Below, piece by piece: positions 425-19,147 of a stretch of 64,000 nt of DNA. The notes under the pieces are model-generated. The model was not told the DNA's origin and made no database searches. It saw only the letters and a list, made by a program, of their open reading frames with translations. Both the position numbers and the translations under genes were made by a program. The number at the start of each line of letters is the position of its first letter. The stretch's first letter is position 1. Location: assembly GCA_033763255.1 (NCBI GenBank), contig JANRKX010000087.1, positions 40,075-104,074 of the forward strand, written 5' to 3'. Origin of the DNA: Acidobacteriota bacterium. Lineage in GTDB: Bacteria > Acidobacteriota > Blastocatellia > RBC074.

Positions 425-2062
425 TCAATAATTCATTCCGATGATTTCGCCTCGATCATCCACATCCAGCTTGGCGGCTTGCGGAACTTTGGGCAGTCCA
501 GGCATCAGCATCATCGAACCGGCAACCACGACGACAAATCCCGCTCCGGCGGATAAATGCGCCTGCGTAACAGTCATCGTCCAGCCACTCGGAGCGCCCA
601 ATACTTTCGGATTGTCGGACAACGACGAGGGCGTTTTGGCGATGCAAACGGGCAAGTCACCAAAACCCAATGTCGTGAACTTCCGCAGCTTCTTGCTCGC
701 TTCAGAATCGAAATACACCGCGCCTGCCCCGTAAATTTCTTTGGCGACACGTTCGACTTTTTCCTCCAATCCCAATTCCGGCGAATAAAGCGGCGTTACC
801 TGCTCTGCGTCACTGGCGTCAGCGGCAGCCATAACCTTCGCAGCCAAATCCATCGCGCCTTCGCCGCCTTTGTCGTAAACCTCCACGACGGCGCTTTCGA
901 CATTCGCAGAGCGGCAGAATTCCTGAATGGCGGCAACTTCTTCATCGGTGTCTGTGGTGAAGCGATTGATGGCAACAACAATCGGCACTTTGTATTTCCG
1001 CAAGTTGTTTAGATGAGTTTGCAGGTTGGCCAGACCGCGGTGCAGGTTATTCAGACTGCTATCGTTCGGGAAATCCGCCGAAACGCCGTGCGCGGCCAAG
1101 GCTCTGGCCGTGGCGATCAAGACAGCGGCGGCGGGTTTCAACCCGGATTTCGGCATCACCAGATCGAAGTATTTTTCCGCTCCCAGATCGGCTCCGAAAC
1201 CGGATTCGTTGATGACGTAATCGGCCAGCTTCGTGGCCATCTTTTGCGAAATCACGCTGCTGGTTCCGTAGGCGATATTGGCGAACGGGCCGGTGTGAAC
1301 AAAGGCCGGAGTTCCTTCGGTCGTCTGCGCCAGATTGGGCATGATGGCTTCGTTCAGCAAGACCATCAGCGCGCCGGTCACGTGCAAATCGCGGGCGCGA
1401 ATCATTTGGCCGTCCAGGTTATATCCCAGCAAAATGTCGTCCAGCTTGCGCCGTAAATCTTCGCGGGAATTGGCCAGGCCCAGGATCGCCATCACTTCCG
1501 AAGCGGCGGTGATGATGAAACCGGTTTCGCGCGGTACGCCGTTCGCCTTACCACCCAGGCCGACGATGATGTGCCGCAAAGCGCGGTCGTTCATATCCAT
1601 TGTTCGCGGCCAGAAAATGCTGTCCACATCGAAGCGCAGTTCGTTGCCGTGATGCAGATGCGAATCAATCGCCGCCGCCAGCAAATTGTGTGCGGTCGTA
1701 ATGGCGTGAAAGTCTCCGGTGAAATGCAGATTGATTCGTTCGGCTGGCAGCACCTGAGATTTGCCGCCGCCGGTTGCGCCGCCTTTCAGCCCAAACACAG
1801 GCCCCAGCGACGGTTCGCGCAAGGTAACAATCGGACGTTTGCCGTGGCGTTCGATGGCCTGAGCCAGCCCGATGGAAACAACGGTTTTGCCTTCGCCGTG
1901 CGAAGTCGGTGTCATCGCCGTGACCATAATGAATTTCGCCTGCTTGGGCGATTTCCATTCGGACAGCAATTCCAGTTTCAGTTTGGCCATGTGCTGGCCG
2001 TAATAAATCAGGTATTCGTTTGGTATGTTCAATTTGTCGGCGATGTGTTTGATGGGAAGCAT
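425..2062 (-). CDS. fhs: formate--tetrahydrofolate ligase
   Basis: The roughly 545-aa product aligns with FTHFS along its full length (PIKHIADKLNI..., TPTSHGEGKTVVSIGL, GGATGGG). The start is chosen at MLPIK, which has a gaagg RBS, rather than the upstream ATG. Confidence 0.9.
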   Translation of the reverse strand: MLPIKHIADKLNIPNEYLIYYGQHMAKLKLELLSEWKSPKQAKFIMVTAMTPTSHGEGKTVVSIGLAQAIERHGKRPIVTLREPSLGPVFGLKGGATGGGKSQVLPAERINLHFTGDFHAITTAHNLLAAAIDSHLHHGNELRFDVDSIFWPRTMDMNDRALRHIIVGLGGKANGVPRETGFIITAASEVMAILGLANSREDLRRKLDDILLGYNLDGQMIRARDLHVTGALMVLLNEAIMPNLAQTTEGTPAFVHTGPFANIAYGTSSVISQKMATKLADYVINESGFGADLGAEKYFDLVMPKSGLKPAAAVLIATARALAAHGVSADFPNDSSLNNLHRGLANLQTHLNNLRKYKVPIVVAINRFTTDTDEEVAAIQEFCRSANVESAVVEVYDKGGEGAMDLAAKVMAAADASDAEQVTPLYSPELGLEEKVERVAKEIYGAGAVYFDSEASKKLRKFTTLGFGDLPVCIAKTPSSLSDNPKVLGAPSGWTMTVTQAHLSAGAGFVVVVAGSMMLMPGLPKVPQAAKLDVDDRGEIIGMNY

Positions 2063-2079
2063 AATGATGAAACCTTCAA

Positions 2080-3258
2080 TCATGGGTTTGCAGATTGTCG
2101 TCTGCGGCTGACGATAAGCAGATCATCTTGTTGAGAATGTTTGCGGAATCCCAGCAGGTGGCAGATTTCCACGACAAACCAATGAGCGATTTGCGTGTTA
2201 ATCAACAACGCATCGGAGTTGTCCGGCAGCCGATGAATTCCGGGTAAATGCGGCAGCAAACGATCAACGTTCCATTTTCGTAACTGAGCGGAAACTTTCA
2301 GCCAGAATAGATTCACCTCGCGCACCAGAAAAAATCCGTCTTCACCCTGGCTCTGATACAAAGGCATAAACAGCAATCCGTCTTCTGGCGAAACGACGCT
2401 GCCTTGCCGGTCGCTGGCCAGCAATTGGCCTTTTGCCACGCGCGTGAAATTCGAAAAACCGGGTTGCATGACAAATTCATCCGTTTCGTGAACTCCATGC
2501 CGATGACGTAATTCCATCACACGAGGCACGTCGCCGACCGAGCGTTTCAAGTGCTGGCGCAGGTCGAAAAATTCATGGATGTAATACGGTTTTATGCAAC
2601 CAGCCGCCGCCAGCGTGATCCAGATGGCGGCTTCATGATTGAGCAGGGACGTTGGCGAGCGATGTTGTCCGGCTTCAAACCCTATGGCGGCGTGACCGAG
2701 TTCGTTGGCGTAATTAAGAATCGTGCCGTCAAGGTTTTCCTCAAGACCGAGGATGATCGGCACGCCAAGTTCCAATGCCAGACGGCGATTCGTCAGCGTA
2801 TCGCTGATGATGGCAAACGGCGAACCTTCGGAAGAAGTCGTGTGCAAATCAAGAAAGATGGCTTCACCTGTGTGATGTTCCAGCGCCGTTTCGATGATGT
2901 CCAGCAATTCGCGCTGCTCGGCGTCTTCGGCGGTGGCGGTTTGAGCCGGCAACAAGTCTTCTATTTCGCTTACCTGCTTCGGCGACCACATACGATTCAG
3001 GTCTCGGTGCTGATACCGGACTCCAGCGTTCAATGCCCTGACGTTTCCGGCCAACGCGATCAATTCGCCTCGAAATGTCGGGGAGGTTTCGCGCAATTTT
3101 TTCAAGACGATTTCCAGTGCCAACGCTCCGGCAGGCTCATTGCCGTGAATTCCGCCGATGCAAATCACCAATGGCCCCGGCTGTTTCCCGGAAAATCGGC
3201 CAAGTTCGCGGTGAAATTTCTTTTCGTGAATTGATTGCATAACGGCGCTTTTCAACAT
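2080..3258 (-). CDS. succinylglutamate desuccinylase/aspartoacylase (AstE/AspA) family zinc deacylase
   Basis: The [10 protein letters not shown] zinc-ligand motif and overall AstE_AspA-like layout are present. The start is taken at MLKSAVMQ, which has a ggagt RBS. The upstream 56 codons are probably not translated. Confidence 0.7.
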
Positions 3259-3433
3259 CGGGTTTGTACTCCATCCACAACGACGCTCACGATTCCTCCA
3301 ACATAAAAAACCTGCTTCTTTGCCGCGCCCGTCAGTAGATTGTGAGACTCGGCGATAACTTTTTCGCGCATACCGATTTATTACCAATCGGCGTGCCAAA
3401 TCGCCGTCAACCTGCACGGCGGCCATTCAATGC

Positions 3434-3449
3434 TGGCTTATCAATTGCT
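3434..3449 (+). promoter_or_regulatory. possible sigma54-type -24/-12 element (TGGCTT-N5-TTGCT) upstream of the cytochrome cluster
   Basis: The GG and GC dinucleotides are spaced exactly 12 nt apart. The -24 box deviates from TGGCAC. It sits about 125 bp upstream of the cytochrome ATG. Confidence 0.25.
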
Positions 3450-3574
3450 TCGGTGAAGGCGTAAGTCGGTATTTGCAGAACAAAAAAGCGGATATTTCCT
3501 CAATGGAACTCAAAATTACCCAAATCACTGCAAGTTTTCGCAATCTCTCAACATCTCAAGAAAGGGGGCAGAAC

Positions 3575-4387
3575 ATGTTCAAGAAGCTATCAATAGTTTT
3601 CTTCTTCGCATTGTTTGCGACTGCGGGAATTTCCGGGTGGGGAGTCAACGCGACCTCGTTTCGGCTGACGCAAAACGAATTCAAAGACAACAACTGCGTG
3701 GGTTGCCACGCCAAAGTAACCAGTCCATACAAACTGACCAGCCGATATGCCGAATGGCAAATTTCCACTCATCACGAAAAAGCTGTTGGCTGCGAGAAAT
3801 GTCATGGCGGAGACCCGGCAATCAAAGACGAAAAACGAGCGCATCAGGGAGTCGTTCCTCCTGAAAATCCGCAGAGCCGGTTGCATCTGAAAAACCTGCC
3901 TGAAACCTGCAGCACGTGTCATCAGGGCGTGGTCAGTTCGTTTACGGAAAGCACGCATTACCAAAAGCTGAAAGGCGCCGGAATCGGGCCGAGTTGTTCT
4001 ACCTGCCACGTTCACATGGGATCGCAGGTTTTGTACACGCCTGAAGAAACCGCTGCGATGTGTTCAACCTGCCACAATTCGCCGAACAAACTGATGCCTC
4101 TGCGACCGGAAATCCCGGAAAAGGCCAACGAAGTCATGCAATCCATTCGTCGCGCAAATACGATGGTGCTGTGGGCAGATCGGCTGTTAGATCAAGCCGG
4201 AGCCAAAAAACTGGACATCAACGACGAACAGAAAGAACAGAAAATTGCCAGAGCCGTTTTGGCCGAAGCAAAAGTCAGTTGGCACGCTTTCAATCTGGAA
4301 AGCGTTCGCAAAAAAGCGGACGACGCCCACGATATGAGCGCCAAAGTAAAAGACTCGCTGAGAGCAAAACTTTTCCCTCAACAATGA
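3575..4387 (+). CDS. pentaheme c-type cytochrome, exported
   Basis: There are five CxxCH motifs (CVGCH, CEKCH and three CSTCH). An N-terminal signal peptide (MFKKLSIVFFFALFATAG) is present. An RBS (aaagggggcagaac) lies before the ATG at 3575. Confidence 0.8.
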   Translation: MFKKLSIVFFFALFATAGISGWGVNATSFRLTQNEFKDNNCVGCHAKVTSPYKLTSRYAEWQISTHHEKAVGCEKCHGGDPAIKDEKRAHQGVVPPENPQSRLHLKNLPETCSTCHQGVVSSFTESTHYQKLKGAGIGPSCSTCHVHMGSQVLYTPEETAAMCSTCHNSPNKLMPLRPEIPEKANEVMQSIRRANTMVLWADRLLDQAGAKKLDINDEQKEQKIARAVLAEAKVSWHAFNLESVRKKADDAHDMSAKVKDSLRAKLFPQQ

Positions 4388-4433
4388 CCTCTACGGCAAA
4401 ATCGCCTGTAGAAACTTAAGGAGACTATCCAAA

Positions 4434-4790
4434 ATGAACAAGCTCGCTAGAAAAACCGTCTTTTCAGCGTTCGCCGCAATGGCGCTTACCTTTGCGGTTA
4501 TCACGATGACCAAACCATCGGAAGCTGCTTATTTCCAAAGCGCCAAATCACTCTTTGCACAGAAGTGTTCTGTCTGCCACGGCAACGACGGAACCGGCAA
4601 CACCGCCAAAGGCAAAGAACTAAAAGTTCGCAATTGGAAAACTGACCCGGAAGTCAAAAAGATGTCCGACGCCAAAATGGTGGAAATCACAATGAAGGGC
4701 AAAGGCAAAATGGAAGGTTACGAAAAAACTCTGGGCAAAGAAAAAGTCGAAATGCTTATTGCTTATAGCAAAACTCTGATGGGGAAATAA
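4434..4790 (+). CDS. monoheme class I c-type cytochrome, exported
   Basis: A signal peptide is followed by a single CSVCH heme site. An aaggag RBS is present. Confidence 0.8.
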   Translation: MNKLARKTVFSAFAAMALTFAVITMTKPSEAAYFQSAKSLFAQKCSVCHGNDGTGNTAKGKELKVRNWKTDPEVKKMSDAKMVEITMKGKGKMEGYEKTLGKEKVEMLIAYSKTLMGK

Positions 4791-4810
4791 CCGCTCAGAT
4801 GCAAATTTCA

Positions 4811-4860
4811 GCCGCAGATAAACGCTTGTCTGCGTTTATCTGCGGCTTCACTTTTTTTGT
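4811..4860 (+). terminator. intrinsic terminator-like hairpin inside the cytochrome operon
   Basis: The motif is GCCGCAGATAAACGC-ttgtct-GCGTTTATCTGCGGC followed by ttcacttttttt. A ggaga RBS and the next ATG follow immediately. Confidence 0.5.
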
Positions 4861-4873
4861 GGAGACTTCACTT

Positions 4874-5503
4874 ATGACGGGAACAACTACAATTTCGGTG
4901 GCTGTCATTCTATTCAGCGTGGTGTTGATTGCCTGGCTGACGTCTCGCCCGTCCATCACCGCCACTCGCGGCGGCAAGATGCTGGCGTTTGTCGCCTTGC
5001 TGATCTTTCCGCTGCTGGCCGGAGGCATGGGCGTCAACGAACACATTCAACATTCCAAGACCACCAACTTCTGCCTGTCCTGCCACGTGATGGAAGATTA
5101 CGGCAAAAGTTTGCGCGTGGACGACCGCAGCTACATTCCGGCAATTCACTTTCAAAACAATCTGGTTCCGCGCGACCAGGCCTGTTTCACCTGCCACACC
5201 GATTACACAATGTTCGGCGACACGACGGCCAAACTGCGCGGATTGAAACACGTGTACGCTTATTATCTGGGCAAACCGGCTGAACCGATCAAACTGTACA
5301 CGCCTTATAACAACCGCGAATGCCTGCATTGTCATTTGGGCGGACGCGGGTTTGAAGAATCAGAAGCCCACAGCAAGGACGCCGAACTGATGGCCCGGAT
5401 GAAAGCCAACAAGCTTGGCTGCACATCCAGCGGCTGCCACAACATCGTTCACAACATTCCTTCGCTAAAAGAAGCGACATTCTGGAAGGAGGCTGGCAAA
5501 TGA
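4874..5503 (+). CDS. NapC/NirT/NrfH-family membrane-anchored tetraheme cytochrome c (quinol dehydrogenase-like)
   Basis: An N-terminal TM anchor (TISVAVILFSVVLIAWL) is present. Heme sites are CLSCH, CFTCH and CLHCH, plus an unusual CTSSGCH (CX4CH). The start is taken at the ATG at 4874, which has a ggaga RBS. Confidence 0.8.
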   Translation: MTGTTTISVAVILFSVVLIAWLTSRPSITATRGGKMLAFVALLIFPLLAGGMGVNEHIQHSKTTNFCLSCHVMEDYGKSLRVDDRSYIPAIHFQNNLVPRDQACFTCHTDYTMFGDTTAKLRGLKHVYAYYLGKPAEPIKLYTPYNNRECLHCHLGGRGFEESEAHSKDAELMARMKANKLGCTSSGCHNIVHNIPSLKEATFWKEAGK

Positions 5504-5697
5504 ATTCGCAATCATCAAAAATCGAAAAACGGATCCGATTGTCCGGCTTGTTGTTGATAACCGGGTTGCTGGTGGAACTGGTCAGTTTGTACTGGTCGCA
5601 TCCGACAGCTTTTTTGTTCTTCCTGCTGCTGGGCGGAGTGCTGCTGGCGGCGGGAATTGTGATTTACCTGCTCTCGCTGGTTTCTGCCGAAAGCTGA
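5500..5697 (+). CDS. small membrane protein (two TM helices), translationally coupled to the tetraheme gene
   Basis: Its ATG overlaps the upstream TGA (ATGA). The 65-aa product has two hydrophobic helices. Confidence 0.45.
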   Translation: MNSQSSKIEKRIRLSGLLLITGLLVELVSLYWSHPTAFLFFLLLGGVLLAAGIVIYLLSLVSAES

Positions 5698-5807
5698 ATC
5701 CTTGCAGTACGGGGAATGTGAGCGACCTGAGTCTTTCTGAAAGCATACTTCAAGCAAAACTCAGGTCGTGCATACGCCTCGTTTCACATTGAATCGGATT
5801 TATGCTT

Positions 5808-5845
5808 CGGATTGATTCTTTGGATTGATTCTTTGGATTGATGCT
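5808..5845. repeat. 13-bp tandem repeat, about 3 copies (GGATTGATTCTTT)
   Basis: The units are cggattgattctt, tggattgattctt and tggattgatgct, seen directly in the sequence. Confidence 0.5.
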
Positions 5846-5995
5846 GTCGCAGTTGATCCGGCAATGAAATGAGTCCCAACCGACCGGGACGAAGAAACTG
5901 TCAAACGCTTTACTTGATCTGCCATCGCGTAACATCAGTTACTAGATCGCTTTTCATTGGCGTGTCTGGATTATCAGGCGCTATTGAACTGTAAA

Positions 5996-6026
5996 TGTGG
6001 GGCAATTTTCCAAATTGTCCCACACA
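5996..6026. promoter_or_regulatory. dyad-symmetric element, candidate enhancer-binding-protein site (UAS) for the downstream sigma54 promoter
   Basis: The motif is TGTGGGGCAATT-ttccaa-ATTGTCCCACA, with 11-bp arms and one mismatch. It lies about 170 bp upstream of the -24/-12 element. Confidence 0.35.
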
Positions 6027-6183
6027 CCAAAGTGAAAACTGATCTAAATACCAAATCCTAATTCCAGAATCCTCAAACAACCTTCTCGTCTGCCAGCGGA
6101 ATTTTCCCAGCCGACACAATGCTCACCGGTGAAAATCACCCAAACATTTCCTCAATATCACCAACTATCAACAAGATAGCTGG

Positions 6184-6199
6184 TGGCACGCATGTTGCC
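6184..6199 (+). promoter_or_regulatory. sigma54 (RpoN) -24/-12 promoter
   Basis: TGGCACG-catg-TTGCC matches the TGGCACG-N4-TTGCW consensus exactly. It lies about 70 bp upstream of the hsp20 ATG. Confidence 0.6.
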
Positions 6200-6266
6200 A
6201 ATTTTGTTCTCGGCTGGAGATTCACTGGAAGGAAAACAATCTCGAACGCAGTATGGAGGTACTGAG

Positions 6267-6785
6267 ATGAAAGCCCAACAAGCATTGGAAACTCAACCGG
6301 CAGAGAAACCGATCTTTGTCGAAGCAGAAAAATTGATCAACCGCATGGAAGAATTGACGAAAAACGTTGCTCATCGCGCTTATGAATTTTTTGAAGAGCG
6401 TGGCCGCCGGTTCGGCAATGAACTGGAAGATTGGTTCCGCGCCGAGTCCGAATTGATGCGCTACGTGCCAACGACATTGAAAGAAGGTGATCAGCAATTC
6501 ACTTTTCAAGCCGAAGTCCCAGGCTTCAAAGCCGAAGAAATCAAAATCAGCGCCGAACCGAAAATGCTGATTATCGAAGGCGAATCAGAACAGAGCACCG
6601 AAGAAAAATCCGACAAGGTCGTGTTCAGCGAACGACGCACAAATCATTTTTGCCGCTCGTTCAGTTTGCCCGCTGAAATTGATCCTGCCAAAGTGACCGC
6701 CAATCTGAAAAACGGATTGCTGGAAATCATTTTGCCGAAAGTGCCGGTTCGCCAGCCGGTCGGCGTGGAAATCAAAACCGTGTAA
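6267..6785 (+). CDS. small heat-shock protein (Hsp20/alpha-crystallin) with an N-terminal DUF2934-like segment
   Basis: The C-terminal alpha-crystallin domain includes ...GLLEIILPK. The N-terminal [26 protein letters not shown] matches the DUF2934 consensus. The start at 6267 has a ggagg RBS. The upstream ATG at 6183 would overlap the promoter. Confidence 0.85.
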
Positions 6786-6839
6786 TGCAGATTCGGGTTT
6801 CGATGTCTGCTCCTTTGTTTTTGATAGGAGGTGAAAATC

Positions 6840-7529
6840 ATGACTTACAAATCAGACCAGGAACTGCAAAGCGAGGTGATGTTCCAGCTTGGGTGGGATT
6901 CGCGCATCAAACAAACCGAAGTCGGCGTGACGGCTCATAATGGAATCATCACTTTAACCGGCAAGGTGGGCAGTTACGCGAAAAAGCTGGCGGCTCAGCA
7001 GGCGGCGCATCGCGTCAAAGGAGTGCTGGACGTGGCCAACGACATCGAAGTTCACATCCCTGGCAGTCTGTCGCGCACCGACGAAGAAATCGCTCAGGCG
7101 GTTCGCCACGCCCTGGATTGGAACGTGCTGGTTCCGGCGGAACAGATTCACTCGACTGTGTCGAACGGTTGGGTGACGTTGGAAGGCAACGTCGAATACT
7201 ACCGCGAACGCACCGACGCCGAACGCGCTGTTTCCCATCTACCCGGAGTTCGCGGCTTGACGAACAAGATTCTGGTTTGTCAGTCGGTCGAACCCGAACG
7301 TGTCAAATTCCTGATTGAAGACGTTCTGGAACGTCGCGCCGACCGTGAAGCCGACCGCATACGAGTCAACGTCACCGATGGCGAAGTGATTCTGACCGGA
7401 GCAGTCAATTCGTGGGAAGAAAAGAAAGCAATCTTAGGCGCGGTCAGTCACACTCCGGGCGTCAAAGGCGTTCAGGATCATTTGTTCATTGATCCGTATC
7501 ACATGCGATTCGACGTGGCTTACGCATAA
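6840..7529 (+). CDS. BON-domain (OsmY-like) protein with three BON repeats
   Basis: There are three repeats of the type ...V.V..G.VTL.G.V......A...A....GV..V.N.I.V. The start ATG at 6840 has a ggagg RBS. Confidence 0.8.
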   Translation: MTYKSDQELQSEVMFQLGWDSRIKQTEVGVTAHNGIITLTGKVGSYAKKLAAQQAAHRVKGVLDVANDIEVHIPGSLSRTDEEIAQAVRHALDWNVLVPAEQIHSTVSNGWVTLEGNVEYYRERTDAERAVSHLPGVRGLTNKILVCQSVEPERVKFLIEDVLERRADREADRIRVNVTDGEVILTGAVNSWEEKKAILGAVSHTPGVKGVQDHLFIDPYHMRFDVAYA

Positions 7530-9200: not shown

Positions 9201-11546
9201 TTACAACTCCAGATTTCGCAGCCTAAGCGCGTTCGTAATCACCGACACTGAACTGAACGTCATCGCCGCGCTGGCGATCATAGGGCTGAGCAGCAGTCCG
9301 AACGCCGGATACAAAATTCCAGCCGCCAGCGGCACGCCCAGCAAGTTGTAAACGAAGGCGAAAAACAGGTTTTGCCGAATGTTGCTCATCACCGAGCGAC
9401 TCAAACGGCGAGCGCGAACTATGCCGCGCAAATCGCCTTTAACCAAAGTCAGCCCTGCGCTTTCCATCGCCACGTCGGTTCCGGTTCCCCCATTGCTGAT
9501 TGCTATGCCAACTTCCGCCGCAGCCAAAGCCGGGGCGTCGTTGATGCCGTCGCCGGCCATTGCCACAACTCTGCCTTCGTTTTGCAGCCGTTTGATGGAT
9601 GCGGCTTTTTGATCGGGCAGGACTTCGGCGACGACTTCGGCAATTCCAAGTTCGCGCGCGACTGCTTCGGCAGTTTTGCGGTTGTCGCCGGTCAGCATGA
9701 CGATTCGCAATCCGTCTGCCTGAAGCTGCCTGATTGCTTCAGGCGTTGACGCCTTGATCGAATCGGCAACGCCTAGCAATCCGACAACTCGCCCATCAAC
9801 CGCTGCCAGCATCACCGTCTGCCCCTCGGCGCGAAGCTGTTCGGCTTTGTCAGCAATCGAACCGTCAATGTTGATCGAAAACGATTCCAGCAACGCCTGA
9901 TTGCCGAGCGCAACTTGCTTGCCGCCAACTCGCCCAACGACGCCTTTGCCTGTCAGCGACTGAAATCCGTCAACGCCAACCAAATCCAATTTGCGCTCTT
10001 CTGCGGCTGCAATAATCGCCGCCGCCAACGGATGCTCGCTCGCCCGTTCCAAACTCGCAGCCAATCGCAAAAACTCCTGCTCATTCTCGCCGTCGTTCAA
10101 AATCAACGACACCAACCGCGGTTTGCCTTCTGTCAGAGTTCCGGTTTTATCCACGACCAAAGTGTTGATCTTGGCCAGCGTTTCCAAAGCTTCGGCGTTT
10201 TTTATGAGCACGCCAGCCATCGCGCCGCGCCCGGTTCCCACCATCACAGACATCGGCGTAGCCAATCCCAGCGCGCACGGGCAGGCGATAATCAAAACCG
10301 CGACGGCATTGACCAGCGCGTAAACAAACCGAGGTTCAGGGCCGACAAAGCTCCAAACCAAAAACGTGATGACCGAAACCAACACCACAGTCGGCACAAA
10401 CCACGCCGAAACAGAATCGGCCAAACGTTGAATCGGAGCGCGACTGCGCTGAGCTTCACCAACCATCCGCACGATTTGCGCCAGCAGAGTTTCGCTGCCG
10501 ACTCGTTCGGCTCGCATAATGAAACTGCCAGTGCCGTTGACTGTGCCGCCAGTAACTTTGCTGCCGGATTCTTTTTCGACCGGGATCGGTTCGCCTGTCA
10601 CCATCGCTTCGTCAACGGAACTGCGGCCTTCTGTGACAACGCCGTCCACCGGAACTTTTTCGCCGGGACGCACGCGCAACAAAGCTCCGGGAAAAACCAA
10701 ATCGAGTTCAATGTCTTCTTCGTTGCCGTTGGCTCGAACGATGCGCGCAGTTTTTGGAGCCAAGTCCAACAGCATTTTGATCGCGCTGCTGGTCTGGCTG
10801 CGCGCGCGGAGTTCCAAAACTTGCCCTAGCAAAACCAGAGTCGTGATGACGGCGGCGGCTTCAAAGTAAACGGCTACTTCGCCGCCGTGACCTTTGAACG
10901 AAGCCGGAAAGATTCCGGGAAAGACCGTCGCCACGACGCTGTAACCAAACGCCGAGCCTGTGCCGATGGCAATCAATGTGAACATGTTCGGGCTGCGATT
11001 CGTGATCGAGTTCCAACCGCGAACAAAAAACGGCCAACCTCCCCACAACACAACGGGCGTTGCCAAAACGAGTTGCAACCACACAACCAGCCGATGGCCT
11101 ATGGCGTGTTGTACCGGCTGACCCGGAATCATCTCCGACATTGCCAGCGCAAACACCGGAAAGGTCAACGCAAGACAAATCCAAAACCTCCGCCGCATAT
11201 CGTCCAGTTCCGAAGTGTCTTCTTCCGCCGTCGGCGAAAACACTTTCGGTTCCAAAGCCATTCCGCACTTCGGACAAATGCCGGGGCCGATTTGCACGAC
11301 TTCGGGATCCATCGGGCAGGTGTATTCAATCGCCGTTGAAGTTTCGGCTGGCATTTCCGTTTTGTGGGTTGGGTGAAGAATCGCTTCAGGATTGGCGGCG
11401 AACTTTTCGCGGCAGCGCGGATTGCAGAAAAAATACGTCGTGCCTTGATGTTCGAACTTGCCCGCAGCCGTCGCGGGGTTGACCTTCATTCCGCACACGG
11501 GATCAACGTGCAAAACAGGTTGGAAGACGGGTAAGGATTTCGCCAT
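9201..11546 (-). CDS. copA: copper-translocating P1B-type ATPase (CopA-like) with N-terminal TRASH/YHS-like and HMBD metal-binding domains
   Basis: Motifs CPC ([13 protein letters not shown]), DKTGTLT and GDGINDAP are present. The N-terminus carries CGMKV...YFFC and CPMDPEV...CPKCGMAL. Confidence 0.9.
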
Positions 11547-11556
11547 AACAATTCCA

Positions 11557-12768
11557 TCAGTTTGGCAGCGGCATCGTTGCCGTCATGACGCGCGAGCTTG
11601 TCCACGCGAAAACCAGCGTTTTACCGCCCCTACTTTTTTCTGAAAGCACCATTTGCGGAAATCCGTTGGAACGAGCCGTGCCGTTTGGCGCAACAGCGAT
11701 GGACGCATACATCTTGCCGTCAGGATAAACACGTCGAACGCGCACCGAACCGCTGCCCGTCGCTTTTTCCAGCCAGCAGACCAGCGCGCTGCCGTCGTTG
11801 AGCATCAGCGTTTCGACTCGGCCAACGGGGTTGCCATCATCAATCGTGATCGGTTTGCCGAAGCTTTCTCCGGCGTCGGAGGAAAACGCCAGCCGGACTT
11901 GAGGTTTGTCACCCGCGCCGGTGTACCACGCGACTGCGACTTGTTTGCCAGCAGCCGCCACCGAAGGGCCGTTGACCGGGCAGCCATTCAGTTTCCAACC
12001 GTCGTCGTGAACGGCGCGCGGTTCAGCCCATTTGCCAGCTTTCAACCGGACGATGGAAATGTCGCGCATCTCTTCGTCCGAACGGTCGCGGTAAACCACC
12101 ACTGGCCCTTCGGCAGTCATCGCCGCCGAAGTCTGGCAACATTCACAAACGCGGGCATCCAATTTGGCTTCATCGGTCAACGTTCCATCGCGTTTGATCT
12201 TCACGTAACGCAAAGTCATGTTGCCGTGCCCATGCCCGTGATCGTCTTTACCGCCAGGAGTCATTTCGCGTCCGTCCAGCCAAACAGCCGCAAGTTGTCC
12301 GTCTTTGGTGGCAAACAGCGAAACAAATCCGTGTTCGGCTTTCACGCCGTCACGATGTGCGACAAAAGGTTTGCTCCAGGTTTTGCCGCCGTCGAACGAA
12401 CGCGAAATCGTCACGTCGTAATCAAACGTGCCGGAGCCGCTTTTGACCAGCCAATGCGCGGCCAGAGTTCCATCCGGCAAAACAATCATCGAAGGAAAAT
12501 CCGCCCAATTGACGAACCAGTTGGAGCCTTCGGCAATGATGCGCGGCGCTGACCAACCGTCATTTTCTTTCACCGCGAAACGCAACGAAGCTTTTCCTTC
12601 GCCCAATCGTTCGATCCAACTCAGATAAACTTTGCCGTCGCGCGAAACGGTCAAGTTGGGTTGACCGCTGCCCGCGCCCGCTGGTGAAACCATCTCGCGC
12701 ACTTGCGACAACGCCAACACAGGCAGCAACCAAACCAACAGAAGCGAACTGATTCGAAGCTTATTCAT
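11557..12768 (-). CDS. BNR/Asp-box repeat beta-propeller protein (sialidase-like fold), exported
   Basis: A signal peptide ([21 protein letters not shown]) is present. Repeated S-x-D-x-G-x-T-W/F motifs occur ([23 protein letters not shown]). The start may instead be at 12813. Confidence 0.7.
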
Positions 12769-12773
12769 AGTTT

Positions 12774-14372
12774 TTATCCGTGATGTTGATGAGCGTCTTT
12801 TTTGTTCGGCCATTTCGGGCCGGGTTCGTATTTTCCTTCTTTGATGAGCGCCATCATGCGGTCGTATTGGTCAGGCGGCAAGACTCGCACCAAAGTCATC
12901 ATCCCCATCATCGCCCCCGTCCAGCCTTCGGGCAGCCAGGAATTTTCAGGCCGTGCAACTTCGGCATCCATTGTCATCCACATGTCTTGCGGATAACCGG
13001 GCACGCGCTTTTTCTTCGCGCCCGCGACCTGACTTTTCGGCAATGTCAGCGCCATGTTGCATTTCGGACAACTGCCCGGTTTGTCGGATTTCACTTCGGG
13101 GTGCATCGGGCAGGAATAAACAACAGCCGCATTCTTGTCTTGCCCGACGCCGTTTGAAACGCTCTGTTCCAGCGGAATGCCCAGAGTTCGCCCAAACGCG
13201 GGGCCGTTTTCGTCAGACAGCGCGTGACCTTTGGTGATGATGCCCATGCCGGATTCCATTTCACGGCTGGGCGGTGCCATGTGTTCGGAATGATTCATCG
13301 GCCCGACCATCGAAACCATCTGGTTCATCATGTGGTGCGGCAAATGGCAGTGAATCATCCAATCACCAATGTTCGTCGCTTCAAATTCGATGTCACGCGC
13401 CTGAGCTACGCCAACCAGAACGGTGTTGCCTGGATACCAGCCGACTTCTGGAATGCGCCCGCCTTCGGTTCCAGTGACGTAAAACTGCATGCCGTGCATG
13501 TGAATCGGATGATGATCCATGCTCAGATTGACCAGCCGAATCCGCACGCGCTCGCCGTGTTTGACGATCAGCGGAGTGCAGGCCGGGCCGGCTTTGCCGT
13601 TGAAAGTCAGCCAGTTGAATTCCATCGCCAATGTGTTCGGCACAGTGTTGTTAGGCAAAATCGCCCAGCCTTGCAGAATCAAGCCGAAGTCTTTGTCCAC
13701 CTTCGGCGTTTGCGCGTTGCGCGGATGAACGATGAAAAATCCAATCATGCCCATCATCTCCTGCATAGGCATGTGCGAGTGATAAAAGTACGTGCCGTGC
13801 TGATGCAGCATAAATTCATAAGTGTGAGTTTCACCCGGCATAATCAGCCACTGCCCCAAGCCCGGCACGCCGTCTTGCGACATTGGAACTTCCAAGCCGT
13901 GCCAGTGCGGAGTGGTCGGCTCTGGCAGATTGTTGGTGAAGTGAATGCGGACGCGGTCGCCTTCCTGAACTTCGATGGTTGGTCCCGGCAGGCTGCCGTT
14001 GTAACCCCAGGCGTCCACCACGCGCGCATCAGCCCACGGCGCGGCTGGCAGAAATTCCGTGCGGACAGGTTCGGCGCTCAGATGAAAGACCTTCACGCCG
14101 TTTTCCAGATTGTACGGCAGCTTCGGAATGTCAGGCGTGAACACCGGTTTGAATGGCGCGGGCGCTCCCAGAGTTTCCGGCTGCGAAGGAATTTTGGACG
14201 GAGTTGAGGGAGCCGCTGGCTTGGGCGGCGTGTGTTGATGTTGCGAATGATCCTGCACGGCAGGTTTGGTTTCTTGATGTTGATGCTGCTGAGCGTTTGC
14301 GGTCTGCGTTGCGACCAGACTTGCGCCCAACATCGAAGTGCGGCGAAGAAAATTGCGACGATTTGAATTCAT
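12774..14372 (-). CDS. multicopper oxidase (Tat-exported) with a C-terminal CopA-type heavy-metal-binding domain
   Basis: The Tat signal [11 protein letters not shown] is present. Cu-site motifs are HWHGLEV, HCHLPHH and HPIHMHG. The C-terminal YSCPMHPEV...CPKCNMAL parallels the CopA N-terminus. The start at 14372 has a ggagag RBS. Confidence 0.85.
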
Positions 14373-14459
14373 AAAAGACTCTCCATTCAAGCTTTCAACG
14401 CAAAGACGCCAAGCCGCAAAGAAAAACCTTGGCGACTTTGTTTCTTAGCGCCTTTGCGT

Positions 14460-15821
14460 TTATTGATTTGCCGCTGAGTTATTGCCAGAAACTCCGTTTG
14501 GCGCGTCCAGTCCGCCGGTCAGCAACAACCCACGCAGTTTGACGACGTGTTGCCACAATTCGACCAGCGACGAAATGTATTCCGTGCGCGCCTGAAACAG
14601 CGTTCGCTGTGTAAAAAGCACTTGCGGATAAGCCGCGCCCATTTGCCGAAACTTGGCCAGATACAGGTCATAAGCCCGTTGCGCGCGCGGCAGAACTTCG
14701 CGCTGATAGCGAACCGCCACGCCTAGCGAGTTTTGATACTGGGCAAAGCTTTCGGCCAGTCGTGCGCGCAAAGCCAATTCCACACGCTGAACTTCGCGTT
14801 CGGCGGCGGTCAGGTCAGCTTTCGATGCCGCGACGTTTCCCTGATTGCGATTGAAAATCGGCACGCGAACGCCTGCTTCCAGACGACCTTCCCAGCCGGT
14901 TTTGCCGCCGTAAAACTCCGCCCATTCGTTGCTGTACCCTACGCCGCCGCGCAGATAAATGTCTGGCTTCGGCTCCGCTTTGGCGCGACTGACGACGGCT
15001 TTGGCGCGCTCGACTCCGGCCAACGCGCGTTTTATTTCGGGGCTGTCGCGCAACAAACCGGCCAGCATTTCTTCCTGCACCATCACCGGCGCAGTCGTTT
15101 CCAAAGCGTTTTCCAGCCGCGTCGGTTTCAAGTTCGGATCGTTGACCACCGCCGCCAGCGTCTGCCAAACGCGGCTGTAATCATTGCGTGCGCGCAGCAA
15201 ATCAATTTCGGCGCGTTGCAATTCGACTTCGGCGGCCAACACGTCCGGGCGATCTGCCGCGCCTGTGTTGAACAGGTCTTCGGAAATTTCCGTCGCTTCG
15301 CGCGTCAATTCAGCCAGTTGCTGACGCAGATCGAGCAATTGCTGAGCGCCCACGACTTCGTAATACAGCATTCGCACGGCGTTCAGCACGCGCAACCGCT
15401 GAGCTTCGGCTTCGGCCTGCGTTTGAGCTTTTTCCTGCGCGGCGATGTTTTTGCTTTTGGCCAGCTTGCCGCCGGTCAAAATGGTTTGTTCGACAAAAAA
15501 ACCTTGTCCGTTGCGATACGGATAGACCAGCGAATTGAACGCCAGCCCGTCGCCTTCGTACCCGATGACTGGATTTGGCCACAGCCCGGCCTGGCGGCGG
15601 CGACCTTCGGCGGCCTGAATGGCGGCTTCGGCCTGACTGAGAGTCGGATTGTTTTTGATCGCCATTTGTTCGAGCGCGGCCAGCGTCAATTCTGGCGATG
15701 ACTGTTCTTTGGTTTGTGTGATGTTCGGTTGCTGAGCCGTTGCGGTTGGAATCAGCAAGGCGAAACATAATGCCGCTGAGGCTCCAGCACGAAGCCGCAC
15801 GACAATTGATCTGAATGACAT
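14460..15821 (-). CDS. TolC-family outer-membrane efflux protein
   Basis: A signal peptide is present. The outer-membrane-factor two-repeat helical/beta pattern is seen (LTLAALEQMAIKNNPTLSQAEA..., PDIYLRGGVGYSNEW). Confidence 0.8.
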   Translation of the reverse strand: MSFRSIVVRLRAGASAALCFALLIPTATAQQPNITQTKEQSSPELTLAALEQMAIKNNPTLSQAEAAIQAAEGRRRQAGLWPNPVIGYEGDGLAFNSLVYPYRNGQGFFVEQTILTGGKLAKSKNIAAQEKAQTQAEAEAQRLRVLNAVRMLYYEVVGAQQLLDLRQQLAELTREATEISEDLFNTGAADRPDVLAAEVELQRAEIDLLRARNDYSRVWQTLAAVVNDPNLKPTRLENALETTAPVMVQEEMLAGLLRDSPEIKRALAGVERAKAVVSRAKAEPKPDIYLRGGVGYSNEWAEFYGGKTGWEGRLEAGVRVPIFNRNQGNVAASKADLTAAEREVQRVELALRARLAESFAQYQNSLGVAVRYQREVLPRAQRAYDLYLAKFRQMGAAYPQVLFTQRTLFQARTEYISSLVELWQHVVKLRGLLLTGGLDAPNGVSGNNSAANQ

Positions 15822-15912
15822 GATTCTTGCTCCGAAATTTTAGAGACACGAATGGTTCAACTGCCAGCCAAACAGCCGGGCAGCGCAAATGCCAAAATTT
15901 ATCGGAGTCGGT

Positions 15913-16389
15913 TTAGATTCTCAGGCTGAGCTGAAAACCCGTATGCGGCGGCGAGTGAATCGCGGAGTCTTGAATCGGAATGGACGAGGAGTCGAAAACG
16001 AGTTTGCTGTCAGGCCACAACGAAGCTGCCAGCACAGCAACCTCTTTACCAATTTGCGGCGCAACCGTCGAAGGCAACGGTTCGCCTTCGGGCGTTTCGC
16101 GCTTCATCGCACAGCAGTTGCGATTCATCATCGCAGCAAAAACTTTGCTGGCGGCAGCTTGCTGTTCTGAATGCGCGTTTGGGGCTGAATGTGTCTGCTG
16201 AGCTTTCTTTTCCGCCGCTTTTTTCCGGTGACAAGGCGGAAGGTTTTCATCTGATTCGGCGGCTTGTTCGACAACCTGCGGCGCAGACAATTCTGCCACC
16301 TTCACGCAACACAATCCTCCGCACAGCCCAAACGAAAGCAGAAGTTGCGCGGCCAGGAGCATTGAAATTGTCTTTTGCAGAAACCTCAT
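15913..16389 (-). CDS. hypothetical exported Cys/His-containing protein
   Basis: A signal peptide is followed by CGGLCC and NRNCC motifs and a His/Lys-rich segment. Support comes from ORF length and operon position only. Confidence 0.35.
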   Translation of the reverse strand: MRFLQKTISMLLAAQLLLSFGLCGGLCCVKVAELSAPQVVEQAAESDENLPPCHRKKAAEKKAQQTHSAPNAHSEQQAAASKVFAAMMNRNCCAMKRETPEGEPLPSTVAPQIGKEVAVLAASLWPDSKLVFDSSSIPIQDSAIHSPPHTGFQLSLRI

Positions 16390-16434
16390 CGGTTTGGATT
16401 AAACCAGACGAAAGACCTGGAAACAACTTGCGAG

Positions 16435-17391
16435 CTAATTCTTCTTCCACGCCACTTTGCCCATTTCGCGCCAGGTCGTCAGTTTGATGCCGAGTTCTTT
16501 GATCAGAGCTTCGATTTCGGGATCGGTGAAGGCCAGAAAATCGCCATAACGTTGTTGCCACGATCCGGTCGTCGCTTTCAATTCGGCATCGTCCATTCCC
16601 AAATGAACGATCAGCATCGTCACTCCGGGTTTCAGATTGCGGAGGAAGGTTTTGTAGGCTTCTTTGCGTTCGGCTGGCGTTTTGCCCTGCACGCCCGTCA
16701 CCAGGTAATCCAGCATCGCAAAGCCGTCGGCTTCGACTTTTTTCAGCACGTCTTCTGTGATCGGCGAACCGGTCAGCTTGCCGTATTGAATCGCTTCCAG
16801 CGTTGGACGCATGACCATCACGGGAATTCCGTACTCTTTGCCGAGTTTGGTGTACACGTCGAAAAAGTCTTTGCGCGTGTACAGCGTGCCCATGTGCGTG
16901 TCCAGGTGAGTCGGCTTGATGCCGAATTGAAGCGCGCGTTCGATCTGCGCGCGAATCTCGGTTTCGATTTCCTGCGGCGTGGCGTTTTTGGCCGTGTCGC
17001 GTTCCGAACGCCACATAAAACCTTCCGGGTCGAGCAGGCCTTTGACCTTTTCCGGCGAAGCCACCGGTCGCCAGCGCAGATATTTCCATTCACTGGTCAG
17101 CGTCAGATGCAATCCCAGATCGAGTTCGGGATTGGCTTTGGCGTGAGCCGCGATTTCGGGAAACCACGGACACGGAACCATGATGCTGCCCGAAGTCACC
17201 ATTCCTTTTTTGAAAGCTTCGATGGAAGCCACATTGACCGAATGCGACATGCCTATATCGTCGGCGTGAACCATCAGGACTTTGTCGTTCGGGCCATAAC
17301 CGAGTTGTTGGGCGGTGGTGGTTTGCCCTGAAGCAAAAGCCGTCAGCACCGCCAGCAGAGCAAGTGAGAAAATCAGTTTCATAGTTATCAA
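16435..17391 (-). CDS. YdjC/ChbG/HpnK-family carbohydrate deacetylase, exported
   Basis: [31 protein letters not shown] matches the YdjC signature (ADDFGLS..N.GI.EA..G.V.S). A signal peptide is present. Confidence 0.8.
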
Positions 17392-17397
17392 TTCCTT

Positions 17398-18045
17398 TCA
17401 GTGGATGAGATGTTTGTCGTAACCGAGCGCGATCAATTGTTCATACGCCTGCCAGACTTCCGCCGAGATTTCCTGTTCGATCTGAAAGCCTTTGGCCGGG
17501 TAATCGCGGATGCGTTGCAAGTCGCCGACCATGATGTTGATGACCAAATCTTTGGGAAGTTCGGCGGTTGGATACGTTGCCCAATCGCTCGGCGGCGAGC
17601 TAATCCGAATGGCTTTGCCCGGCCAGTTTTTCATGAACGTCGCGTAGGCTCGCCGTTCCATATACGGTTTCTGGACGACGATGAAACGTTGCGGATCGAG
17701 TCCCTGTTCAGCCAGCACGCGACGACTGAACTGTATATTTTCGCCGGTGTTGGTGGAATTCGGCTCAATCAAAATCACTTCGCGCTGAACGCCTTTGCTG
17801 ACAGCGATGTCGGCGAAAGTTTCGGCTTCTGACTTGGCGAACTTGCCGCGTGTCAAAGCGCCTACGTTGCCGGAAAACATCAATCTCGGCGCCCAGCCTT
17901 GCAGAAACAAATCGGCGGCGTGTTCGGCAACTCGCGTGTCGTTGCTGCCGAGCGCCAAAATCAAATCGGATTTTTCCAGTTGATGGTTTAGGTGGTGATA
18001 ATCCCAGATCAGTTGGGAAAGTTCGTCAATCAGTTTCTCGGTCAT
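17398..18045 (-). CDS. DUF218 (YdcF/ElyC/SanA-like) domain protein
   Basis: The DUF218 pattern (DLILALGS...RVLAEQGL...IVVQKPYMERRA) is present. Confidence 0.75.
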   Translation of the reverse strand: MTEKLIDELSQLIWDYHHLNHQLEKSDLILALGSNDTRVAEHAADLFLQGWAPRLMFSGNVGALTRGKFAKSEAETFADIAVSKGVQREVILIEPNSTNTGENIQFSRRVLAEQGLDPQRFIVVQKPYMERRAYATFMKNWPGKAIRISSPPSDWATYPTAELPKDLVINIMVGDLQRIRDYPAKGFQIEQEISAEVWQAYEQLIALGYDKHLIH

Positions 18046-18194
18046 AATCAGCCTGCCGGCTCAACTCCATTCGTTTCAAACTTGGCGGCGATGGTAAAAC
18101 GTTGAGCCGTTTTCCGCCAGCTTTTGCCGGGTGTGAGCCGCTTACCTATAATGCGCGCCTTGTTTTTACATCCCGTTTTCAAAGGAGCAATCCG

Positions 18195-19124
18195 TTGGCA
18201 CTGAAAGACCTGATCTCGATCAATCACCTGACGCCGAAAGAAGTCCGGCAGATTTTCACCACCACCGCCGACCTGAAAGCCAATCCGCGCAATTACGCTG
18301 AAGCGTTGGCCGGTTGCAGCGTCGCGCTGATTTTTGAAAAGCCAAGTTTGCGGACGCGCGTGACTTTCGATCTGGGCGCAACTCAGATGGGAGCTTCATG
18401 TGTGTATCTGGATCATCAAGGAGTCCGGCTCGGCGAACGCGAATCGGTCAAAGACATGGCTTTGAACCTGGAACGTTGGGTGGATGTGATCGTCGCGCGC
18501 ACTTACAGCCACGAAACCGTGATCGAACTGGCCGAGCATGCGTCGGTTCCGGTCATCAACGGCTTGTCGGAGTTTTCGCATCCGTGCCAGGGGCTGACGG
18601 ATTACTTCACGCTGACGGAAAAGGTCGGCGAAGATTTGAGCGGATTCCACATCGCGTATGTCGGCGACGGAAACAACACGGCGCATTCGCTGATTTTCGG
18701 CGCGGCGAAGCTTGGCGCGCACATCAGCATCGGTTGCCCGAAAGGGTACGAGCCGGATAAAGACGTGCTGAAAGCCGCTCGCAAAGAAGCCCAAAAAACC
18801 GGCGCGAAAATCAAAGTCTTCAACGATCCGTTTGAAGCCGTCGAAGGCGCTCAGGCTGTTTATACCGACGTGTGGGCTTCGATGGGCTTTGAAGCCGAAA
18901 CCGAACGCCGCCGCGAAATCTTTTCGGCGTTCCGCGTCACCAAAAAACTGATGAACGCCGCCGCCAAGGGCGCGTACTTTATGCACTGCCTGCCCGCTCA
19001 TCGTGGCGACGAAGTGGACGCCGACGTGATAGACAGCAAGTGTTCGATTGTTTACGACGAAGCCGAAAACCGGCTGCACACGCAAAAAGGAATCATGCTG
19101 GCGTTGGTGCAAGCCAACCGATAG
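18195..19124 (+). CDS. argF: ornithine carbamoyltransferase
   Basis: Motifs SLRTR, HPCQ and HCLP are present. The N-terminus ALKDLISINHLT matches the OTCase start. The start is placed at the TTG at 18195, 7 nt after an aaggag RBS. The in-frame ATG at 18102 would add a non-homologous 31 aa. Confidence 0.9.
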   Translation: MALKDLISINHLTPKEVRQIFTTTADLKANPRNYAEALAGCSVALIFEKPSLRTRVTFDLGATQMGASCVYLDHQGVRLGERESVKDMALNLERWVDVIVARTYSHETVIELAEHASVPVINGLSEFSHPCQGLTDYFTLTEKVGEDLSGFHIAYVGDGNNTAHSLIFGAAKLGAHISIGCPKGYEPDKDVLKAARKEAQKTGAKIKVFNDPFEAVEGAQAVYTDVWASMGFEAETERRREIFSAFRVTKKLMNAAAKGAYFMHCLPAHRGDEVDADVIDSKCSIVYDEAENRLHTQKGIMLALVQANR

Positions 19125-19147
19125 CAATGATGAATTCAGAATGCTGA

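Follow-up and report, generated by a model that had tools for sequence, protein, structure and literature searches.

A 64,000-nt stretch of contig JANRKX010000087.1 (assembly GCA_033763255.1), which derives from an acidobacterium of the class Blastocatellia and is called the window here, contains a compact module of four genes on the same strand, encoding a pentaheme, a monoheme, and a tetraheme cytochrome c and a small membrane peptide. We consider it probable that these four genes represent the inner half, located in the cytoplasmic membrane and the periplasm, of an MtrC-less porin–cytochrome pathway of the Mto/Pio type that serves extracellular electron transfer (EET), because in related genomes they lie in synteny with genes for a decaheme cytochrome and an outer-membrane β-barrel protein.

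Organization and recurrence of the cytochrome module

The genes of the module are listed below.

3575–4387, + strand: pentaheme cytochrome gene (270 aa); the open reading frame (ORF) opens at TTG 3473; five CXXCH motifs
4434–4790, + strand: monoheme cytochrome gene (118 aa); one heme motif, CSVCH
4874–5503, + strand: tetraheme cytochrome gene (209 aa); the ORF opens at 4799; motifs CLSCH, CFTCH, CLHCH, and CTSSGCH
5500–5697, + strand: two-helix peptide gene (65 aa); its ATG overlaps the TGA of the tetraheme gene (ATGA)

Read from the motifs in the window, the module has a total of 10 c-type heme sites (5 + 1 + 4). This gene content and heme count agree with a first-pass annotation made from the letters of the window alone, all the elements of which were found where it had placed them. 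For the pentaheme, ATG 3575 is the most likely start codon, as judged from a GGGGG ribosome-binding site, a predicted signal peptide (MFKKLSIVFFFALFATAGISGWGVNA), and the lengths of the orthologs (268–270 aa). The tetraheme starts at ATG 4874; all 120 listed homologs are approximately 209 aa long and begin at that Met.

The loci surveyed (labeled L001 and so on) comprised 80 obtained by scanning a single genome for each species and six from metagenomes; the scan, covering 185,579 species genomes, contained at least 534 loci. Synteny was counted in the 64 genome loci whose upstream flank reached 4.6 kb or more. The loci occurred in Blastocatellia, Terriglobia (Acidoferrales, Angelobacter, Sulfotelmatobacter, and Bryobacteraceae), Thermoanaerobaculia, and a few other taxa, and the tetraheme family amounts to 3,291 clusters at 90% identity. 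The four-gene unit was found again in close relatives, including L007, a metagenome-assembled genome of the Blastocatellia type that is approximately 97% identical to the window across the module. Because the unit, the unusual CX4CH site of the tetraheme, the adjacency of the peptide, and an upstream −24/−12 element all recur in relatives, these features of the module are not due to chance.

Synteny with a decaheme cytochrome and an outer-membrane barrel

In 48 of the 64 loci, the genes for the decaheme, the barrel, the monoheme, the tetraheme, and the peptide were contiguous on one strand, and in six more they lay within 9 kb. The order in the L004 operon is pentaheme, a 342-aa multiheme, a 706-aa protein, monoheme, tetraheme, and peptide, and that in the L006 operon is monoheme, a 355-aa multiheme, a 717-aa protein, tetraheme, and peptide. 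In L007, the decaheme (3552–4619, 355 aa) and barrel (4638–6776, 712 aa) genes are directly upstream of a spacer and the module, and matching with this barrel gene identified the 5′ end of the window.

1–330, + strand: 3′ end of the barrel gene (the last 109 codons plus the stop codon of a gene of approximately 712 aa)

By the same comparison, the decaheme mtrA-like gene of the window lineage lies just past the 5′ edge of the window. The first-pass annotation had concluded that the module encodes no partner and that its electron donor and acceptor are unclear; this impression arose because the window edge cuts off the decaheme gene and most of the barrel gene, and most relatives have a decaheme and an MtrB-like barrel in the same operon.

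The decaheme proteins of L004 and L001 scored 242.2 and 249.9 bits, respectively, against the DmsE/MtrA model TIGR03508 (cutoff 192.2), and ten CXXCH motifs were present in the decaheme of 59 loci. The barrel protein is approximately 700–850 aa across the loci and is annotated as hypothetical, with a signal peptide and a C-terminal outer-membrane β-signal. When the 109-aa fragment in the window was searched for homologs, it returned fragments only, and a full-length ortholog was used as the query. Neither sequence nor profile searches gave the barrel a match in Pfam, NCBIfam, or PDB, and none to MtrB or PioB (PF11854, TIGR03509) was obtained. Its link to MtrB comes from fold comparison, by which the protein is a predicted MtrB-like outer-membrane porin of the partner conduit. 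No MtrC-like multiheme ORF occurred within 10 kb in any surveyed locus.

An extra gene in L001 (1–528) encodes a true Pfam MtrB_PioB domain (792 aa) and directly precedes the genes for the decaheme and the orphan barrel; therefore, two different barrels flank one decaheme in this locus. L007 is without this extra gene.

The tetraheme is a distinct relative of NrfH

The tetraheme protein scored 40.6 bits against the Pfam family PF03264 (Cytochrom_NNT; cutoff 24.1; E 2.9e−10), with which its homologs are annotated too. Its membership in the NapC/NirT superfamily, proposed from the window sequence, was thus confirmed; the closeness to NapC/NirT implied by the same proposal was not, because the protein is nearer to NrfH and falls far under every NCBIfam equivalog cutoff. 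The scores were 39.2 versus 134.2 bits for NrfH (TIGR03153), 33.6 versus 310.6 for napC_nirT (TIGR02161), 34.5 versus 349 for NapC (NF007906), and 32.5 versus 478 for TorC (TIGR02162). A phmmer search of PDB with the single sequence gave nothing meaningful, and a profile of 31 diverse sequences had NrfH (2J7A) as its sole significant structure (E 1.3e−4). These comparisons suggest that the tetraheme is a distinct subfamily of the NapC/NirT/NrfH proteins, nearer to NrfH than to NapC, NirT, or CymA; the literature searched held no account of an NrfH-like subfamily with CX4CH.

The closest solved relative is NrfH of Desulfovibrio vulgaris (2J7A/2VR0), the menaquinol dehydrogenase of the nitrite reductase NrfHA. 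Both proteins are small membrane-anchored tetrahemes that share the heme 1 motif CXXCHXM and a conserved Lys, K120 of the tetraheme aligning with K82 of NrfH; C67-x-x-C70-H71-x-M73 and K120 were invariant across the 31 diverse tetraheme sequences. In contrast, Asp89 of NrfH, the distal residue of heme 1, is replaced by His126, which is near-invariant in the tetraheme family. NrfH has one N-terminal helix, whereas the tetraheme has two, plus CX4CH at heme 4; the partner of NrfH is NrfA, whereas the tetraheme is without an NrfA partner and is paired with the small membrane peptide. The hydrophobic segments of the tetraheme (residues 4–22 and 36–54), separated by a positively charged loop, were both kept in the alignment of homologs, and an AF2 model showed long helices at 3–24 and 32–61, but with a pLDDT of 56. 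The protein is predicted to have two N-terminal hydrophobic helices, not the single transmembrane helix usual in the superfamily, and the first hydrophobic segment may be cleaved.

Relatedness to NrfH raises the question of a nitrogen-oxide system, in which electrons would pass from an NrfH-type anchor and an NrfB-like pentaheme to a reductase for nitrite, hydroxylamine, or NO whose gene lies elsewhere. NrfH is both the best NCBIfam match and the closest structure of the tetraheme, the pentaheme partly matches NrfB, a nos cluster is found 4 kb from L004, and nrfH/nrfA-like pairs occur within 10 kb in L022 and L049. However, the Nrf scores are far under their cutoffs (39 vs 134, 33 vs 184, and 14 vs 167), the position of NrfH Asp89 is His in the tetraheme family, and the conserved neighbors are a decaheme and a barrel, with no nrfA-like gene in the window or in 85 of the 87 loci. 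The Nrf system was rejected on the lack of nrfA and the scores under cutoff, and we regard such a function as very improbable. A relationship with ActA/ActE of alternative complex III (ACIII) was also rejected, as there are no ActB or ActC genes.

A conserved CX4CH motif at the fourth heme

The last heme site of the tetraheme departs from the canonical spacing.

5420–5440, + strand: CX4CH site of the fourth heme, C183-T-S-S-G-C188-H189 (TGC ACA TCC AGC GGC TGC CAC)

Three CXXCH motifs and one C-x4-CH motif, with intervening residues [TSLIM][ST][ST][GDE], were present in 117 of the 120 closest homologs. Read at the DNA level, CX4CH was present in 86 of 87 loci, the exception being L075, which reads CLECH. 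In the wider family, the fourth site could be assessed in 75 of 150 representatives at 50% identity, and CX4CH occurred in 33, CX2CH in 41, and CX3CH in 1. Both Cys residues, His189, and the downstream His193 were invariant.

The first-pass annotation had noted that orthologs uniformly reading CxxCH would point to an indel in this assembly; the orthologs instead keep CX4CH, and the motif is real. That the motif stems from an indel introduced during sequencing or assembly, or is a dead site without heme, is highly unlikely even if one considers that CX4CH is generally rare among c-type cytochromes and that about half of the distant relatives read CX2CH at this site. The same spacing recurs in independent homologs from many assemblies, which refutes the indel version, and the four intervening residues vary only within the narrow pattern given above, between residues that do not vary at all. 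CX4CH is, moreover, an established heme-attachment motif, listed among the accepted variants (PMC11492766).

CX4CH at this position can be read as a conserved lineage feature rather than a sequencing error. The suggestion that it marks a specialized heme is weakened, as the same site alternates between CX2CH, CX4CH, and CX3CH among relatives; the pattern is that of a fourth heme site, predicted to be heme-occupied, that tolerates different loop lengths and has changed state between relatives. CX4CH occurs in Desulfovibrio cytochrome c3, and the expanded spacing with a bis-cysteine attachment motif is the same there and in other multihemes as in the window. The site described here differs from these in that it sits at the last heme of a NapC/NirT/NrfH-type fold and interconverts with CX2CH among relatives. 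No description of a CX4CH variant in a NapC/NirT/NrfH-type family was found in the literature searched.

The tetraheme is paired with a two-helix peptide

The 65-aa peptide has two strongly hydrophobic segments and was encoded directly 3′ of the tetraheme in 78 of the 80 genome loci. The ATGA overlap, seen in 65 of 86 loci, bears out the translational coupling that had been proposed for the two genes. The peptides share the motif E-x-R-[IL]-R-x-x-G...GL-x-x-E...W-x-H-P-x-[AS]-F, and their conserved traits are a basic N-terminus, a Glu in helix 1, and a W-x-H-P-x-A-F periplasmic loop. They matched no Pfam or NCBIfam family and gave no match to NapE/TorE at E values up to 1, and no description of such a partner peptide was found in the literature searched. 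The peptide is a probable membrane subunit of the tetraheme. It also adjoins CX2CH relatives of the tetraheme in other gene contexts (on contigs of 1.6–2 kb), and because it accompanies these relatives too, the tetraheme–peptide pair forms a conserved core unit.

TorE and NapE have one helix, whereas the peptide has two predicted helices and no sequence match to either. It further differs from them in its W-x-H-P loop and helix 1 Glu and in being coupled downstream of the cytochrome. TorE and NapE form a complex with the TorC/NapC-type cytochrome and reinforce its anchoring (PMC6134056). Like them, the peptide is a small membrane protein encoded beside a NapC/TorC-type cytochrome, and by this analogy, a TorE/NapE-like stabilization would be its most plausible role.

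Putative periplasmic carriers: the pentaheme and the monoheme

The pentaheme is predicted to be periplasmic, with a signal peptide and a heme core resembling NrfB or the N-terminal half of MtrA, followed by a helical C-terminal extension of approximately 95 aa. The five CXXCH motifs and the candidate distal ligands H66, H90, H128, H147, and H237 are invariant, with H237 located in the extension. Partial matches were obtained to positions 3–128 of the 258 positions of the DmsE model, that is, its first half, and to GSU2203; sequence and profile searches of PDB gave nothing significant. The scores against the NrfB models were far under the cutoffs (14.4 vs 166.6 for TIGR03146 and 33.2 vs 184 for NF008659) and there is no nrfA neighbor; the protein is neither NrfA nor NrfB, in line with the first-pass remark that it is not obviously either. 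The pentaheme was present only in Blastocatellia-type loci (14 of 61).

The monoheme is a class I cytochrome c with a signal peptide. It scored 41.7 bits against Pfam Cytochrome_CBB3, also matched Cytochrom_C, and was most similar to the C-terminal domain of CcoP and to Kuenenia c552; a PDB search at E values up to 1 returned no MtoD entry. Because its CxxCH motif and Met94 were invariant in 75–76 of 76 orthologs, His/Met ligation is predicted. The monoheme gene was upstream of the tetraheme gene in 68 of 74 loci.

Transcription units and a split operon

Three sequence elements in the window may bear on how the genes are transcribed.

3434–3449, + strand: sigma54-type −24/−12 element TGGCTTATCAATTGCT, with GG-N10-GC spacing, 141 nt upstream of the pentaheme start codon
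4810–4847, + strand: perfect 16-bp hairpin with a T-run after it, located in the 83 nt that separate the monoheme gene from the tetraheme gene
347–381, bidirectional: intrinsic-terminator-like hairpin AAAAA GGCGCAGGC ttatt GCCTGCGCC TTTTTTT, between the barrel gene (+) and a convergent formate–tetrahydrofolate ligase (FTHFS) gene (−)

The pattern TGGC-N7-TTGC occurred upstream of the pentaheme in 11 loci (L001, L002, L007–L012, L014, L015, and L018), with differing 7-nt spacers, and a second copy was present upstream of the decaheme in L001, L007, and L009. The bare pattern is not enriched in the whole window (9 matches against 5.4 expected), so the evidence for a sigma54 element is positional conservation, not count. 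The element had been called sigma54-like but weak; its presence stands, and its conservation in 11 loci speaks against the qualifier. Because the element is conserved upstream of both the pentaheme and the decaheme, both halves, i.e., the module and the decaheme–barrel pair, appear to carry predicted sigma54-type promoters. No sigma54 activator is encoded in the window; NtrC-type activators adjoin the cluster in seven relatives (L005, L006, L015, L016, L019, L025, and L031). Crp/FNR regulators, PAS kinases, and Usp genes are other recurrent neighbors of the clusters, and they hint at oxygen or redox control.

The stem of the 347–381 hairpin was kept in L007, and its position between the two sets of genes indicates that, in the window lineage, the barrel gene is transcribed separately from the four-gene module. 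The spacer between them (425–3426) contains, in the window, two minus-strand genes (FTHFS and an AstE/AspA-like gene). Its content varies, with one gene in L007 (6777–8302), two in the window, and three in L001; the FTHFS gene is shared by the window and L001 and is not present in L007, and L001 has an additional 446-aa gene. In other Blastocatellia (L004, L012, L014, L015, L018, and L024), the pentaheme is upstream of the decaheme in a single operon, indicating that an ancestral operon was rearranged and split in the window lineage. The barrel–pentaheme spacer is a rearrangement hotspot inside this former operon.

The 4810–4847 hairpin has counterparts in the same gap of most Blastocatellia-type loci, where hairpins of unrelated sequence have a dG of −21 to −78 kcal/mol; they are rare in Terriglobia-type loci. 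It is no dispersed repeat within the window, and there was no Rfam match in the region. The hairpin is a candidate attenuator or RNA-stabilizing element that may set the ratio of soluble carrier to membrane anchor.

The separation of the module from the barrel gene bears on the main alternative to an EET pathway, namely, a self-standing quinol:cytochrome c branch that bypasses bc1 or ACIII. Menaquinol would be oxidized by the tetraheme–peptide pair and the electrons passed through the pentaheme and monoheme to a cbb3 or aa3 oxidase or another periplasmic reductase encoded elsewhere, and the linkage to the conduit would be merely historical. The module has its own predicted promoter, with a terminator-like hairpin between it and the barrel gene; the monoheme resembles the CcoP C-terminal domain and the high-potential cytochromes of the c6/c552 type, with an invariant Met ligand; the tetraheme–peptide pair is also found without a conduit; and ImoA of Sideroxydans behaves like a quinol oxidase with several partners in the periplasm (PMC9600427). 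However, contiguous or near synteny with the decaheme and the barrel was kept in 54 of the 64 loci and in several acidobacterial classes, matching sigma54 elements stand upstream of both halves in L001, L007, and L009, and no oxidase or reductase gene is linked to the module in the window or recurrent in related loci. We therefore consider such a branch improbable, though less so than the nitrogen-oxide system above.

Proposed electron path and direction of flow

Gene linkage and the family or fold assignments are what the comparisons show; which proteins touch one another, whether the tetraheme reacts with quinones, and which way electrons move along the EET pathway are inferences, set out below. 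The tetraheme and the peptide, given the NrfH-like features of the former, would act as a quinol/quinone:cytochrome c oxidoreductase anchored by four helices. Heme 1, with its CXXCHXM motif and the nearby Lys120, would face the quinone site, and the CX4CH heme 4, from the position of heme 4 in NrfH, would be the distal heme that touches the soluble partners. Electrons would be shuttled through the periplasm by the His/Met monoheme, joined in this lineage by the NrfB-like pentaheme, and handed on to the genomically linked decaheme of the MtrA/DmsE family, sheathed in the MtrB-like barrel. In the window lineage, the operon is interrupted by one to three unrelated genes, and each half would keep its own sigma54-type promoter.

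As for direction, we lean slightly toward electron uptake or Fe(II) oxidation, with a terminal-oxidase branch, because there is no MtrC-type surface cytochrome and a class I cytochrome with His/Met ligation is used. By analogy with the revised Mto model, in which one high-potential carrier feeds the oxidase and another bridges MtoA and ImoA (PMC13390432), the monoheme could be the oxidase-feeding carrier and the pentaheme the bridge between decaheme and tetraheme. The literature on acidobacterial DmsE/MtrB matches favors Fe(III) reduction (PMC7980381), and ImoA acts as a quinol oxidase (PMC9600427).

Several observations weigh against the assignment of the module to an EET pathway. In energetic terms, a His/Met monoheme is thermodynamically awkward for outward transfer from menaquinol to a low-potential decaheme, and inward transfer to menaquinone is uphill. 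In the window, the module is a transcription unit of its own, 3.2 kb from the barrel gene, with a predicted terminator after the latter, and no homology of the barrel sequence to MtrB or PioB could be detected. The heme positions assigned to the tetraheme derive from a weak NrfH alignment that covers hemes 1–3 only, and the AF2 model is poor (pLDDT 56). Ten of the 64 loci have no decaheme or barrel in reach, two of these ending at a contig edge. Finally, relatives of the tetraheme–peptide pair have other neighbors, in L088 a c7-type cytochrome and in L087 a Gfo/Idh/MocA gene, indicating that the pair is not restricted to the conduit pathway.

Comparison with known Mto and Mtr systems

Sideroxydans lithotrophicus ES-1 has mtoA-mtoB-mtoD plus ImoA of the NapC/NirT family (imoA/cymA_ES-1) (PMC4412085, PMC9600427). 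The gene logic and order of the acidobacterial cluster match this system: both have an MtrA/DmsE decaheme, a barrel, a class I monoheme, and a tetraheme of the NapC/NirT superfamily, and neither has an MtrC-type surface cytochrome. Both also have two kinds of periplasmic carrier, MtoD and PmcA in ES-1 and the monoheme and pentaheme in the window (PMC4412085, PMC9600427, PMC13390432). However, the components differ. ImoA is of the NirT/NapC type, with 64% identity to NirT, whereas the window tetraheme reaches 33.6 bits on napC_nirT and is nearer to NrfH; further differences are its pair of N-terminal helices, the CX4CH spacing of heme 4, and an obligatory partner, the two-helix peptide. The window monoheme is a predicted His/Met cytochrome with no specific similarity to MtoD, which is bis-His (PMC4412085). 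The second carrier is a pentaheme here (in Blastocatellia only) and a monoheme in ES-1, the barrel of the window type has no sequence match to MtrB or PioB, and the host phylum is Acidobacteriota.

Homologs of MtrCAB and PioAB are known in Acidobacteria, such as group 5 of Baker et al. (2022), those of Ca. Acidoferrum, and the PioA/MtoA matches in Acidobacteriia; these reports likewise describe a DmsE/MtrA-family decaheme with an outer-membrane barrel and read it as iron cycling (PMC8805035, PMC7980381, PMC10654088). They concern MtrC-containing clusters or single-gene TIGRFAM or BLAST matches, whereas the window cluster is without MtrC, has a barrel missed by the MtrB/PioB models, and includes its own inner-membrane module. 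No description of a sequence-orphan MtrB-like barrel was found in the literature searched.

Other features of the window and of related loci

Downstream of the module, a near-consensus sigma54 −24/−12 element (TGGCACGCATGTTGC, 6184–6198) lies just upstream of an Hsp20 gene (6264–6785), which is followed by a gene for a protein with three BON domains (6831–7529). A copper-handling cluster occupies 9201–15821 on the minus strand.

9201–11546, − strand: CopA-type P-type ATPase with N-terminal metal-binding motifs
11557–12813, − strand: BNR-repeat protein
12774–14390, − strand: multicopper oxidase fused to a heavy-metal-binding domain
14460–15821, − strand: outer-membrane efflux protein

A link between the cytochrome module and this copper-resistance cluster was rejected because the cluster is on the opposite strand, is separated from the module by unrelated genes, and is not conserved in relatives. 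Elsewhere in the window, a 613-aa ORF (23296–25137) matched radical SAM only marginally, at 29.6 bits where the cutoff is 29.5, and the ORFs at 16247–17089 and 35284–37143 had no Pfam match.

Among the related loci, L004 (GCA_009612815.1) has a nos accessory cluster (NosL, NosD, an ABC transporter, and a NosZ-like propeller) and a Crp/FNR regulator at 12775–20630, downstream of the cytochrome operon. Pairs of a four-heme ORF (approximately 166 aa) and a five-heme ORF (approximately 480 aa) with the look of nrfH-nrfA occur at 3720–5703 in L022 and at 14224–16147 in L049, and only in those two loci.

Implications for extracellular electron transfer in Acidobacteriota

Acidobacteriota, one of the most abundant groups of soil bacteria, are suspected to dominate iron-cycling gene pools (PMC7980381). 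According to Baker et al., their acidobacterial group had no inner-membrane quinone oxidoreductase near mtrCAB (PMC8805035), and a survey in 2018 found no CymA homolog in Acidobacteria (PMC6295460). The locus described here most likely supplies the missing inner half of an iron-type EET pathway that is widespread in soil Acidobacteriota; it does so as a conserved unit in which the genes for the tetraheme, its peptide, and the monoheme accompany those for a decaheme and a barrel. Because PF11854 and TIGR03509 miss the barrel, gene-based surveys undercount such systems. The natural series of CX2CH and CX4CH forms provides a chance to study the effect of an expanded attachment loop on the exit heme of a NapC/NrfH-type protein.

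More speculatively, and as a possibility that we hold only tentatively, the tetraheme–peptide pair may be an unrecognized class of quinone oxidoreductase anchored by four helices and the missing entry or exit point at the cytoplasmic membrane for EET in soil Acidobacteriota, with the CX4CH heme and the His-Pro loop tuning docking or ligation. Together with the orphan barrel, the His/Met cytochrome, and, in Blastocatellia, the pentaheme, it would then let presumed aerobic heterotrophs take up electrons from Fe(II) or another extracellular donor, or discharge them.

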